In this document: one piece after another, positions 1,434 through 5,979 of the stretch
Numbering within the stretch: the first letter of the stretch is position 1
Layout of the letters: every line of letters begins with the position of its first letter
Assembly: GCA_963750285.1 (NCBI GenBank)
Contig: CAVVQA010000010.1
Location: 113,058 to 177,057, forward strand
Source: an uncultured Actinomycetota bacterium
GTDB lineage: Bacteria > Actinomycetota > Actinomycetes > Actinomycetales > CAWJMD01
Direction of reading: 5' to 3'
DNA: 64,000 bases
Position numbers and translations under genes: made by a program
Notes under the pieces: generated by a model
The model's input: only the letters and a program-made list of their open reading frames with translations
The model's database searches: none
Told to the model about the DNA's origin: nothing

Positions 1434-2906
1434 GTGGAGAGTTCCTTGAGCACCCTGACCCAGAACGAGCACCGCGTCCGCGACCTGACGCTGGCCGAGG
1501 CCGGCCGCCACCAGATCCGCCTGGCCGAGCACGAGATGCCCGGCCTGATGGCCCTGCGTACCGAGTACGCCGAGGCGCAGCCGCTGAAGGGCGCCCGGAT
1601 CGCCGGTTCGCTGCACATGACCGTCCAGACCGCCGTGCTGATCGAGACGCTGGTCGCGCTCGGCGCCGAGGTGCGCTGGGCGTCCTGCAACATCTTCTCC
1701 ACCCAGGACGAGGCCGCGGCCGCCGTCGTGGTGGGCACCGGCACCCCCGAGGCGCCGGCCGGCGTGCCCGTCTTCGCCTGGAAGGGCGAGACGCTGCCGG
1801 AGTACTGGTGGTGCACCGAGCAGATCCTCAGCTGGCCCGGTCACGACGGCCCGAACATGATCCTCGACGACGGCGGCGACGCCACGCTGCTGGTGCACAA
1901 GGGCCGCGAGTTCGAGATCGCCGGCGCCGTGCCGTCCACCGCCGAGACCGACTCCGAGGAGTACGGCGTCATCCTCGACGTGCTGCGCGCGTCGCTCGCC
2001 TCCTCGCCCGACCGGTTCCAGAAGATGGCGGCCGGCATCAAGGGCGTCACCGAGGAGACCACGACCGGCGTGCACCGGCTGTACCAGTTCGCCGCCGCCG
2101 GCGACCTGCTGTTCCCGGCGATCAACGTCAACGACTCGGTGACCAAGTCGAAGTTCGACAACAAGTACGGCTGCCGGCACTCGCTCATCGACGGCCTGAA
2201 CCGCGCCACCGACGTCCTCATCGGCGGCAAGGTCGCGGTCGTGTGCGGCTACGGCGACGTCGGCAAGGGCTCGGCGGAGTCGCTGCGGGGCCAGGGCGCC
2301 CGCGTGATCGTCACCGAGGTCGACCCGATCTGCGCGCTGCAGGCGGCGATGGAGGGCTACCAGGTGGCCCGGCTCGAGGACGTCGTCGAGACCGCCGACA
2401 TCTTCATCACCACCACCGGGTGCTACGACGTCATCACCGCCGACGACATGGCGAGGATGAAGAACAAGGCGATCGTCGGCAACATCGGCCACTTCGACAA
2501 CGAGATCGACATGGCCGGCCTGGCCAAGCTCGCCGGCGTCACCAAGACCGAGATCAAGCCGCAGGTCCACGAGTGGACCTTCCCGGCCTCGGACGACGCC
2601 GCGGAGAAGTCGATCATCGTGCTGTCCGAGGGGCGGCTGCTGAACCTGGGCAACGCCACCGGTCACCCGTCGTTCGTGATGAGCAACTCGTTCTCGAACC
2701 AGACCATCGCCCAGATCGAGATCTGGACGAAGCCGGGCGAGTACGAGAACCAGGTCTACACGCTGCCGAAGCACCTGGACGAGAAGGTGGCGCGGCTGCA
2801 CCTCGACGCCCTCGGTGCGCGGCTGACCGAGCTCACCAAGGAGCAGGCGGAGTACCTCGGCGTCGACGTCGCGGGTCCGTACAAGCCGGAGCACTACCGG
2901 TACTGA
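1434..2906 (+). CDS. ahcY: Adenosylhomocysteinase (S-adenosyl-L-homocysteine hydrolase)
   Basis: Intact 490-aa ORF with the full-length AhcY signature (NAD-binding [19 protein letters not shown]-terminal [16 protein letters not shown]). Confidence 0.92.
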
Positions 2907-2921
2907 TCGCTCGCTGATCCT

Positions 2922-3488
2922 GTGCCACGCGGCACCTACCACCTGGCCGGCCGGCCCGAGGCGTTCTCCTGCGCCCCGGGACCGGCCGGTTGGCGTTACG
3001 TCTCCTCGACGCTGGACCTGGCCTGCGACAGCGCCTTCCGCGCCGTCCGGTTCGTCGTGACCGGTGAGGGCGGGCGGTCCGTGCGCGGTGGTGGGCTCCG
3101 GCTGGACGACGGCGCGCCGGTCCTGGTCTGGGCTCCCCCGACGACCCCGGCGCCGAGCGCACCACCGCGGCCACGGGTGTGCTCACCGCGTCGCCCGGGT
3201 CGGTGGTGGCGCTGCTGCGGTCGGTCTCGCCGCCCGGTGAGGCCGCGGCCGGCGCCGACCTCGAGGTGCTGCGGTTCGGGCCCGACGCGCTCGCCGGCCT
3301 GCGGGTGCGGTTGCGGGTCGCCCGGGTCGGTGCGCGTCCGGCACGACGCGCCGGACGGCGAGCTGCTCGACGAGACCTGGACCGTCTCCGACGTCGACAC
3401 CGGCCTGGTCAGCGAGATCCACCTGGCCGGCGACGTCGTGCTGCACGCCACCGCTGGCGTCCTGGACGACGAGATCAGCCGATGTTGA
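2922..3488 (+). CDS. Hypothetical protein (copy 1 of a duplicated gene); internal frameshifts, and the C-terminus is replaced by junction sequence after 3476
   Basis: Begins MPRGTYHLAGRPEAFSCAPGPAGWRYVSS... 16 nt after the ahcY stop. The product is split over three frames (2922.., 3179.., and ..VRHDAPDGELLDETWTVSDVDTGLVSEIHLAGDVVLHATAGVLDDEI). The same unit recurs at 5373-5979. Confidence 0.4.
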   Translation: MPRGTYHLAGRPEAFSCAPGPAGWRYVSSTLDLACDSAFRAVRFVVTGEGGRSVRGGGLRLDDGAPVLVWAPPTTPAPSAPPRPRVCSPRRPGRWWRCCGRSRRPVRPRPAPTSRCCGSGPTRSPACGCGCGSPGSVRVRHDAPDGELLDETWTVSDVDTGLVSEIHLAGDVVLHATAGVLDDEISRC

Positions 3489-3889
3489 CGGGCCGGTCAA
3501 GGCTGGTCGCGAGCGGTAGGCGAGGGTGCTGAGCAGCCGAGGAGGACGGCGTCGAAGGAGACCACGCGAGAAAGAGGACGACGACAGAAAAAAAAAAAAA
3601 AAAAAAAAGGGGGGGGGGGGGGGGGGGGGGGGGGGGGGGGGGGGGGGGGGGGGGGGGGGGGGGGGGGGGGGGGGGGGGGGGGGGGGGGGGGGGGGGGGGG
3701 GGGGGGGGGGGGGGGGGGGGGGGGGGGGGGGGGGGGGGGGGGGGGGGGGGGGGGGGGGGGGGGGAAAGATTCTGGGTAGGACAGGTCCGAGATAGCGAGC
3801 CGATAAGACAGTTCCAGCGTCGATAATATAAGAAGAGAAGAGGAGGAGGGCCGGGTAGTCCTCTGTAGCCGACACCCACGGAGAGAACG
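3477..3889. other. Purine-rich low-complexity junction between the two tandem ahcY-unit copies; possible assembly chimera
   Basis: Homology between copy 1 and copy 2 breaks after 3476 (gacgagatc|agcc...) and resumes around 3855. The segment between is A/G-rich (gaggaggacggcgtcgaaggag...gataatataagaagagaagaggaggagg) and unlike the ~70% GC flanks. Confidence 0.6.
3588..3764. repeat. Homopolymer tract: A21 immediately followed by G156
   Basis: Counted directly: A run 3588-3608, G run 3609-3764. The six-frame track reports poly-Gly / poly-Pro / poly-Phe ORFs across it. Confidence 0.95.
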
Positions 3890-5357
3890 ATGACCACGAC
3901 GCCGCACAACGAGCACCACGTCCGCGACCTGGCTCTGGCCGAGGCCGGTCGCCACCAGATCCGCCTCGCGGAGCACGAGATGCCCGGCCTGATGGCTCTG
4001 CGCGACCGAGTACGCCGAGCGCAGCCGCTGGCCGGCGCGCGCATCGCCGGCTCGCTGCACATGACCGTGCAGACCGCCGTCCTCATCGAGACGCTGGTCG
4101 CGCTCGGCGCCGAGGTGCGCTGGGCGTGCTGCAACATCTTCTCCACGCAGGACGAGGCCGCGGCGGCCGTCGTCGTGGGCACCGGGCACCGCCGACGCGC
4201 CGGCCGGCGTGCCCGTGTTCGCCTGGAAGGGCGAGACGCTCGAGGAGTACTGGGAGTGCACCGAGCAGATCCTCGCGCTGGCCCGGTCACGACGGCCCGA
4301 ACATGATCCTCGACGACGGCGGCGACGCACGCTGCTGGTGCACAAGGGCGTCGAGTACGAGCGCGCCGGCGCCGTCCCGTCCGACCGCCGAGGACCGACT
4401 CCGAGGAGTACGTCGTCATCCTCGACGTGCTGCGCGCGTCGCTCGCCTGCCCGCCCGAGCGGTTCCAGAAGATGGCCGCCGGCATCAAGGGCGTCACCGA
4501 GGAGACCACGACCGGCGTGCACCGGCTGTACCAGCTCGCCGAGGCGGGCCACCTGCTCTTCCCGGCGATCAACGTCAACGACTCGGTGACCAAGTCGAAG
4601 TTCGACAACAAGTACGGCATGCCGGCACTCGCTGCTGGACGGCATCAACCGCGCCACCGACGTCCTCATCGGCGGCAAGGTCGCGGTCGTCGGCGGCTAC
4701 GGCGACGTGGGCAAGGGCGCGGCGGAGGCGCTGCGTGGCCAGGGCGCCCGCGTGATCGTGACCGAGGTCGACCCGATCTGCGCGCTGCAGGCGGCGATGG
4801 ACGGGTACCAGGTGGCGCGGCTCGAGGACGTCGTCGAGACCAGGCCGACTTCTTCATCACCACGACCGGGAACAACGACGTGATCACCGCCGACGACATG
4901 GCGAGGATGAAGGACAAGGCGATCGTCGGCAACATCGGCCACTTCGACAACGAGATCGACATGGCCGGCCTGGCCAAGGTCGCCGGCGTCACCAAGACCG
5001 AGATCAAGCCGCAGGTCCACGAGTGGACCTTCCCGGCCTCGGACGACGCCGCGGAGAAGTCGATCATCGTGCTGTCCGAGGGGCGGCTGCTGAACCTGGG
5101 CAACGCCACCGGTCACCCGTCGTTCGTGATGAGCAACTCGTTCGCGAACCAGACCATCGCCCAGATCGAGATCTGGACGAAGCCGGGCGAGTACGAGAAC
5201 CAGGTCTGCACGCTGCCCAAGCACCTGGACGAGAAGGTCGCCCGGCTGCACCTCGACGCCCTCGGCGTCGCGGCTGACCGAGCTGACCAAGGAGCAGGCG
5301 GAGTACCTCGGCGTCGACGTCGCGGGTCCGTACAAGCCGGAGCACTACCGGTACTGA
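3890..5357 (+). pseudogene. ahcY: Second, diverged and multiply frameshifted copy of adenosylhomocysteinase
   Basis: AhcY sequence is spread over three frames (ORFs 3890-4306, 4209-4589, 4427-5368). It is ~90% nt identity to copy 1 with many indels. The N-terminus differs ([20 protein letters not shown] vs [24 protein letters not shown]). The stop TGA is ~5355, 16 nt before the downstream gene, as in copy 1. Confidence 0.6.
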
Positions 5358-5372
5358 TCGCTCGCTGATCCT

Positions 5373-5979
5373 GTGCCACGCGGCACCTACCACCTGGCCG
5401 GCCGGCCCGAGGCGTTCTCCTGCGCCCCGGGACCGGCCGGTTGGCGTTACGTCTCCTCGACGCTGGACCTGGCCTGCGACAGCGCCTTCCGCGCCGTGCG
5501 GTTCGTCGTGACCGGCGAGGGCGGCCGGTCCGTGCGCGGTGGTGGGCTGCGGCTGGACGACGGCGCGCCGGTCCTGGTCTGGGCTCCCTCCGACGACCCC
5601 GGCGCCGAGCGCACCACCGCTGCCACGGGCGTGCTCACCGCGTCGCCCGGGTCTGTGGTGGCGCTGCTGCGGTCGGTCTCCCCGCCCGGTGAGGTCGCAG
5701 CCGCGGCCGACCTCGAGGTGCTGCGGTTCGGGCCCGACGCGCTCGCCGGTCTGCGGGTGCGGTTGCGGGTCGCCCGGCTCGGGTGCGGTCCGGCACGACG
5801 CGCCGGACGGCGAGCTGCTCGACGAGACCTGGACCGTCTCCGACGTCGACACCGGGCTCGTCAGCGAGGTCCACCTGGCCGGCGACGTGGTGCTCCACGC
5901 CGCCGCCGGCGTCCTGGACGACGAGATCGAGCTGGCCGCCCTCGACGGCCCGCCGACGCTCTTCGGGAGTTGCAACTAG
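5373..5979 (+). CDS. Hypothetical protein (copy 2 of the gene downstream of ahcY), frameshifted
   Basis: MPRGTYHLAGRPEAFSCAPGPAGWRYVSS... is identical in its N-terminus to 2922-3488. The C-terminal part ...VVLHAAAGVLDDEIELAALDGPPTLFGSCN* is read in the 5539-5979 frame. In the ORF track the 5373 frame runs on through low-GC DNA into the next gene. Confidence 0.4.

Follow-up and report, generated by a model that had tools for sequence, protein, structure and literature searches.

We examined a 64-kb window of a contig from an uncultured Actinomycetota bacterium, the whole stretch of DNA analysed here and the frame for all positions given, in which ahcY, the gene for S-adenosyl-L-homocysteine hydrolase (AhcY), and the downstream gene that follows it (here dsg) are both found twice. 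An earlier note on this DNA had presented the arrangement as a biological tandem duplication with a diverged second copy, and at issue is whether that second copy belongs to a genome or to an assembly. The repeat itself is present in the sequence, far beyond chance. BLASTN of the window against itself aligned 1327–3476 with 3771–5928 as a direct repeat of 92.5% identity over 2161 columns, the only long repeat within the 64 kb, and a repeat search of the window recovered blocks 80–98% identical at spacings of 2444–2452. The pairwise alignment that the earlier note had proposed as a check gave, in its local form, 2001 matches out of 2150 (93.1%), 149 mismatches and 14 small indels. These comparisons bear out the recurrence of ahcY together with its downstream gene; the earlier figure of roughly 90% identity is slightly low, as the core (1446–3476) is 94.4% identical to the second copy. 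Along the window, the locus comprises the following features, where L083 is the contig of a close relative:

1327–1445, + strand: ahcY leader, where the shared core block and the repeat (1327) start, with a conserved motif of ~45 nucleotides (nt) at ~1366–1414
1446–2906, + strand: ahcY copy 1, intact S-adenosyl-L-homocysteine hydrolase (Pfam; 100% match to database protein P0001)
2922–3476, + strand: dsg copy 1, with two frameshifts; homology to relatives is lost after 3476
3477–3587, + strand: degraded stub of an alternative strain cassette, increasingly purine-rich (aligns to L083)
3588–3764, no strand: homopolymers taken to be junk, A21 then G156
3765–3907, + strand: corrupted second ahcY leader, with 3848–3907 overwritten by the DUF899 5′ untranslated region (UTR) and first 6 codons
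3908–5357, + strand: ahcY copy 2 from codon 7 on, with 10 indel events
5373–5979, + strand: dsg copy 2, with one frameshift at ~5781–5788, keeping the native C-terminus and stop and running on into the right flank
5932–8975: strain cassette B, with genes for a secreted hypothetical protein (6105–6980, + strand), a DUF222/HNH-type protein (− strand) and an AAA_33 protein (+ strand)

Copy 1 of ahcY is sound. It forms, as the earlier note had said, a clean open reading frame (ORF) of 490 amino acids (aa) from the GTG at 1434 (1434–2906); the start is likely the TTG at 1446, giving 486 aa. This 486-aa protein is 100% identical to P0001 and holds the full-length AhcY domains in one ORF (AdoHcyase, PF05221, E = 8e-148, residues 9–485; AdoHcyase_NAD, PF00670, E = 1e-79), and the gene has only 4 private substitutions. 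Both copies of the downstream gene contain frameshifts, two in copy 1 (~3138 and ~3329–3335) and one in copy 2 (~5781–5788), and comparison with relatives places a private deletion in copy 1. It is intact in the outgroup L001 (11466–12074) and in L083 (11477–12067), where it encodes a protein of ~196–202 aa that matched no Pfam family. In the nearest relatives of the window, dsg again follows ahcY immediately; the two genes may be co-transcribed.

For comparison we used five close relatives (L081–L085), found through an AhcY protein search and then their contigs (ENA assemblies ERZ25039476, ERZ25039516, ERZ25039530 and ERZ25039498, with Flye-style contig names), together with the outgroup L001, a 90%-identical metagenome-assembled genome that was the closest among the matches listed in a reference-genome AhcY scan; 79 distant Actinomycetes ahcY loci were taken from the same listed matches. 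A single ahcY and dsg pair is present in five of the five close relatives and in the outgroup, and the search of related genomes for two ahcY paralogues that the earlier note had suggested thus returned one copy only. Furthermore, both window copies map onto one interval of L081, L082, L083, L085 and L001. Across the core block, copy 1 shares 98.1% identity with L081 and 95–97% with the other close relatives; copy 2 is nearest to copy 1, at the 94.4% given above, and lower to all relatives.

The ends of the repeat fall where strains diverge. On the left, the repeat starts at 1327, and homology to L082, L083 and L085 begins at 1350–1367, with different DNA upstream in those strains. On the right, homology of copy 1 to every relative ends at 3476, and alignment of copy 2 to L081, L082 and L083 extends through 5954. 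Contig L084 ends 11 nt past the point equivalent to the repeat end (3476/5928), and stand-alone 3.0-kb contigs from two other ENA assemblies match 5932–8975 at 99.4% (L086) and 5933–8974 at 98.2% (L087); both thus begin precisely where copy 2 ends on its right. The repeat is thus bounded by points of strain divergence whose alternative branches exist as separate contigs, the boundary pattern of a false duplication. It follows from these matches that the repeated unit is a block common to co-occurring strains with strain-variable DNA on both sides, and a strain-shared block of this kind is handled as a repeat edge in an assembly graph.

Between dsg and the next conserved block (6998), strains carry different cassettes. 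The window has the secreted-protein gene, L083 and L085 have a short remnant and then DUF899, L082 has 3.2 kb of other DNA and L001 has a short ORF, which putatively encodes a YCII-like protein. Within the window, an L083-type cassette stub and junk come after copy 1 and cassette B comes after copy 2, so that this is not a simple tandem duplication: the right neighbours differ, and the head-to-tail junction of a genuine tandem duplication is absent. As an observation in its own right, strain-variable cassettes (1–1350 and 5954–6998) lie on either side of the ahcY–dsg core in otherwise 95–98% identical genomes, and the right-hand cassette adjoins a DUF222/HNH-type gene; on gene content, the locus looks like a hot spot.

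The two copies are separated by a 360-nt spacer that the earlier note had passed over, as it had the frameshifts in dsg copy 1 and those found across the window (below). The spacer holds a run of 21 A (A21, 3588–3608) directly before a run of 156 G (G156, 3609–3764), which is the sole homopolymer of at least 9 bases in the 64-kb window and is almost certainly junk read sequence kept in the contig. Flanking sequence drifts into purines on both sides, and sequence implausible for a genome, one mark of a false duplication, therefore lies at the very junction of the copies. To the left of the run, 3477–3587 aligns to the post-dsg sequence of L083 (12064–12163) with a score of 74 against a shuffle maximum of 46, its identity decaying and its purines increasing toward the homopolymer; it has no significant match to the window sequence that follows copy 2. 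The remnant after dsg in L083 and L085 is tentatively labelled a VOC remnant from its motif. An Illumina poly-G artefact was rejected as the source of the run, being a misfit with frameshift-rich contigs, poly-G on one strand and sequence that recovers on both sides. Machine-generated or planted sequence (homopolymer degeneration, re-copying) was ruled out by the 99.4% identity of 5932–8975 to an independent ENA contig and by the identity of copy-1 AhcY to a deposited protein.

The spacer invites one further explanation, in which the copies were bridged by a single chimeric or concatenated nanopore read, carrying fragments of two strains joined in the library or read back to back through a pore, whose raw sequence, including a stall basecalled as poly-A and poly-G, became contig ~3130–4900. 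The central ~1.5 kb is indeed raw-read-like, with its homopolymer run and purine drift on both sides, and the sequence on either side of the homopolymer seems continuous with L083 12160–12170, weak evidence that the run is an insertion in one read. Such a read would not by itself explain why the repeat ends at strain-variable junctions, nor would it explain the enrichment of family-consensus bases among the substitutions private to copy 2 (below), and we consider it very unlikely.

Beyond the homopolymer, the copy-2 leader is a mosaic. The stretch 3771–3907 is collinear with the ahcY leader at 1327–1463, ungapped and at an offset of 2444 equal to that of the coding region (3765–3907 against the leader: score 76, shuffle maximum 36; left part z = 5.8), and at the same time 3848–3907 matches L083 12204–12263, the DUF899 5′ UTR and first six codons in L083 and L085, at 57 of 60 positions. 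Leader-like runs (GTCCTCT, GGAGAG) alternate at fine scale with cassette-like runs, and the resulting fusion of the DUF899 start to ahcY is in frame and exactly in register. The different N-terminus of copy 2 that the earlier note reported is therefore there as stated and, judged against L083 and L085, is the DUF899 N-terminus, with MTTTPH replacing MSTLTQ in register. Recombination would leave one switch point, whereas an in-register fine mosaic is expected from a consensus of two kinds of read; the copy-2 leader looks like such a blending and not like a single crossover. Similarity between the native ahcY leader and the DUF899 upstream region was considered as a recombination substrate and ruled out, since it was not significant.

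These joins could also be read as biology. In this scenario, one rare strain would carry a real tandem-like duplication in which the ahcY (from codon 7), dsg and cassette B of a related strain came to lie beside the resident ahcY and dsg, with homology in the right flank and an illegitimate end inside the first DUF899 codons (homology-facilitated illegitimate recombination); the redundant copy would then have decayed to a pseudogene, and low coverage would have yielded the junk homopolymer and poor quality. The in-frame fusion is in its favour, as is the position of the locus at a cassette-exchange hot spot beside a DUF222/HNH gene, and copy 2 departs from copy 1 at 34 positions where the relatives themselves vary, which means that it is no plain copy of copy 1. 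However, the fusion is in register, with a 137-nt leader at offset 2444 and alternating bases in place of a single breakpoint, and independent assemblies have a contig end or start at either end of the repeat. Moreover, no relative has the structure, and neither JGI metagenome contigs nor any of the fetched loci contain the junction 27-mer (DUF899::ahcY). We regard a rare-strain duplication as distinctly unlikely, and the composition of copy 2, described next, weighs further against it.

Copy 2 of ahcY is split over three frames, in ORFs at 3890–4306, 4209–4589 and 4427–5368, exactly as the earlier note had found. Its 'at least five' frame-disrupting indels captured the disruption and undercounted it: ten indel events are private to copy 2, with insertions at 4005, 4184, 4277, 4383, 4392, 4619, 4842–43 and 5268 and deletions opposite copy-1 positions 1574 and 1882. 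Polarized against the outgroup L001, copy 2 shows 72 derived differences and copy 1 shows 28. When five relatives are compared, 71 substitutions occur only in copy 2 and 8 only in copy 1, alongside 34 shared polymorphisms. A tally of private substitutions by sequence sets the 71 of copy 2 against 7 in copy 1, 2–35 in L081, L082, L083 and L085 and 167 in the outgroup. The shared polymorphisms are mostly at third positions, whereas the copy-2-private substitutions are spread 26:22:13 over third, first and second positions (P = 0.12 against a uniform distribution, P = 0.011 against the shared class); in a calibration with L082, all 13 private ahcY changes fell at third positions. The copy-2-private substitutions are also clustered, 22 of 71 lying within 2 nt of another (9.2 expected).

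Their distribution along the gene is uneven. Most private substitutions, along with nine of the ten indel events, fall upstream of copy-2 position ~4896, and over its final ~0.5 kb ahcY copy 2 is almost the same as copy 1. Counted per 200 nt, private changes number 8–17 up to copy-1 coordinate 2446 and 0–4 over the next 800 nt, rising again to 7 at 3246–3446, where copy 1 is also noisy. Nor are the bases themselves random: 35 of 53 copy-2-private substitutions are the commonest alternative base in the 79 distant loci (17.7 expected), 41 of 53 are present in at least 10% of those loci, and 26 of 40 amino-acid differences are residues found in other AhcY proteins, including codon swaps of 2–3 nt. 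With its changes concentrated in the first ~1 kb and biased toward family-commonest bases, copy 2 departs from random, evenly spread decay.

Several simpler sources of copy 2 were tried and set aside. A single divergent donor lineage does not account for it, as no single homologue carries more than 10 of 33 copy-2 variant residues and, among 5.8 billion proteins, none is nearer to frameshift-corrected copy 2 than the copy-1 clade (92%). That copy 2 is a noisy copy of copy 1 was ruled out by 28 sites at which it agrees with L001 against copy 1, and another strain's allele with random error added is insufficient, given the family-consensus bias and the multi-nucleotide codon swaps. Copy 2 thus has a copy-1-type backbone in which clade-specific bases have been replaced by family-majority bases and frameshifts added. 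In our view, the pattern is best explained by a consensus drawn from cross-mapped reads of many populations over a thinly covered stretch. A rare-strain duplication fares poorly with the same data: the private changes are mostly family-consensus bases, codon swaps of 2–3 nt among them, with neither matching synonymous divergence nor a database donor, and their concentration in ~1 kb by the homopolymer is uneven, unlike decay.

Frameshifts are not confined to the repeat. A survey of the window by codon-position hidden Markov segmentation and translation found genes split across frames with no stop codon at the switch, and ~25–30 candidate frameshifts in 64 kb, so that the indel error rate of the contig is high throughout and the indels of copy 2 show, in extreme form, a window-wide problem. 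The split genes include the following:

9917–10777: CPBP protease, split frames
20242–20876: MarC-like gene, split frames
21324–22124: ParA, split frames
28963–35557: large helicase-nuclease, split frames
36664–37555: NudC, split frames
38435–40599: UvrD-like helicase, in five frames
50580–51501: lytic transglycosylase, split frames

Over 3 kb, the window and L086, the same haplotype from another sample, differ by 12 mismatches and 6 single-base indels. Where the DUF222/HNH gene of the window is frameshifted, L086 has an intact 474-aa ORF, and L086 has an indel of its own in the secreted-protein gene; a single-base indel away from any homopolymer is thus an ordinary kind of consensus error in these assemblies. 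A nanopore homopolymer-type indel model was inapplicable, as the indels sit outside homopolymers. Separately, the window contains diverged internal similarities of 68–71% identity (18691–19306 with 50996–51592, and 51500–51733 with 51614–51838), one region of which is lytic-transglycosylase-like; these are probably paralogous domains or an internal repeat.

Given this error level, copy 2 might be thought an old functional paralogue, a second, diverged ahcY whose frameshifts are mere sequencing errors. The abundance of frameshift errors across the window would allow for this, and many amino-acid variants of copy 2 occur in other AhcY proteins. Yet copy 2 has ~5 indels per kb against ~1–2 per kb between the window and L086, a comparison whose 6 indels in 3 kb comprise the errors of both assemblies. 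It also alters residues that vary little or not at all among 122 homologues (S80C, I319F, Y438C and W122E, the first three at positions conserved in 115–122 of the 122) and, with these changes added to its ten indel events, does not read as a functional gene. Its ratio of amino-acid to nucleotide divergence is far above that of true lineages, no relative has a second ahcY and the conserved leader motif of ahcY is destroyed in copy 2. A functional paralogue is thus extremely improbable.

The leader motif deserves description in its own right. An element of ~45 nt is nearly invariant upstream of ahcY in ten loci (L001 at ~9930–9975, L002, L004, L049, L063 and L081–L085), whose titles name two Jiangellales and one Kineosporiaceae, the others being Actinomycetales or without a name. 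Its pattern, UCCGGCG..GGUGAUGCC...GGCCCAGAGGGGCC.CGCCGGG, can be folded into a stem enclosing two hairpins, with almost no covariation because the motif hardly varies. The element is a candidate regulatory leader of ahcY. A riboswitch or structured leader was also considered as the cause of the upstream similarity and set aside, as Rfam gave nothing relevant for 1–9000 at E ≤ 1.

Single-copy relatives, boundaries at strain junctions and contig ends, a junk spacer and different cassettes after the two copies fit the second of the three readings that the earlier note had left standing, two strains placed in tandem by the assembler. From these comparisons, we conclude that the second copy of ahcY and dsg is very probably a false duplication from long-read metagenome assembly; the headline claim of a biological tandem duplication is probably wrong, and most likely there is only one ahcY gene at the locus. 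Of the remaining two readings, neither a decaying paralogue nor a recent duplication copied with errors is supported. The earlier note had also argued that ~10% divergence and a new N-terminus oppose an assembler artefact. That argument loses its force, because the N-terminus is a DUF899 blend and most of the divergence consists of family-consensus bases and indels in a poorly supported 1-kb stretch.

We infer the following mechanism for a false duplication. Several closely related strains (95–98% identity) coexist in the samples behind the related contigs, and their shared core (~1327/1367–3476, comprising leader, ahcY and dsg) would act as a repeat edge with several entries and exits. The contig path would run from the left flank through the core into ~0.2 kb of cassette A (the presumed VOC remnant and the DUF899 start) and then into junk (purine-rich sequence, A21, G156), and from there through the core again into cassette B (5932–8975) and the shared right flank. 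During polishing, reads anchored in the left flank would be assigned to copy 1, leaving it clean, and reads anchored in cassette B would mend no more of copy 2 than its 3′ half. Lacking support, the middle (~3130–4900) would stay at raw-read quality and then be partly overwritten by foreign reads: cassette-A reads would give copy 2 its DUF899-like N-terminus, and ahcY reads from many other Actinomycetes would push bases toward the family consensus and leave frameshifts. The single bridging read discussed above would be compatible with this mechanism, the initial step alone being different. Published error classes of metaFlye and similar long-read metagenome assemblers include the joining of regions specific to different subpopulations, falsely duplicated stretches, sequence that no reads support and ORF-breaking indels (bioRxiv 10.1101/2025.04.22.649783). 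A soil pipeline that uses Flye, one Medaka round and a 3-kb contig cut-off (PMC12313526) would fit the stand-alone contigs of 3.0 kb, should the ERZ assemblies stem from that study.

Several points weigh against an assembly artefact as set out here. The verdict is drawn from comparison of contig sequences and not from read depth, the assembler and platform of the window are themselves deduced from Flye-style ENA contig names and the error profile, and the exact route by which the assembler would have joined the cassette stub to the beginning of the core is conjectural. The ratio of substitutions to indels in copy 2, 71:11, is above that expected for raw nanopore error alone, and cross-mapped reads are invoked because the ratio is too high for such error. 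Lastly, absence of the duplication from relatives at 94–98% identity is no proof for this strain.

As biology, the second copy carries little weight, and deleting one repeat unit (for example, 3477–5928) restores the true locus. The artefact matters for those who use the sequence. The 177-kb contig appears to be publicly deposited, its copy-1 AhcY protein being present from NCBI and ENA, and it carries a false duplication of ~2.4 kb, a 177-nt homopolymer, chimeric ORFs such as the DUF899::AhcY 'fusion' and many frameshifts. Counts of genes, calls of pseudogenes, inferred paralogues and catalogues of proteins that draw on the contig would all suffer. Such an artefact can be recognised without reads, from repeat ends that coincide with contig ends of sister assemblies, from a junction filled with junk and from private changes of the second copy that drift toward the family consensus. 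Should the improbable rare-strain structure prove true, it would place a second ahcY in frame behind a DUF899 start codon at a cassette-exchange hot spot.

Among known systems, one close counterpart is the uncollapsed haplotig of diploid eukaryote assemblies, which tools such as purge_dups remove. As there, two allelic versions of one locus have been kept that are too different to collapse; here, however, the 'haplotypes' are co-occurring bacterial strains, and they stand in tandem in one contig rather than in separate contigs. A genuine tandem duplication followed by pseudogenisation would likewise show ahcY and dsg head to tail, with one copy intact and the other frameshifted and enriched in non-synonymous changes. 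In contrast to that case, the window has no clean head-to-tail junction, its right neighbours differ, its changes are confined to one part and lean toward the family consensus, no relative is duplicated and the repeat boundaries are contig ends elsewhere. A further parallel is that of Trigodet et al. (bioRxiv 10.1101/2025.04.22.649783), on haplotyping errors and false duplications in long-read metagenome assemblies, phantom sequence among them. Their cases come from PacBio HiFi data and were diagnosed by read clipping, whereas the window was judged from its sequence; in the window, moreover, the conserved block itself is doubled with only a cassette stub between the copies, and the consensus of the second copy is apparently contaminated by other populations. 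The likeness lies in the long direct repeat, in variable regions that differ by subpopulation between conserved flanks, in alternative variable regions present as short separate contigs, and in improbable sequence with spurious or broken ORFs.

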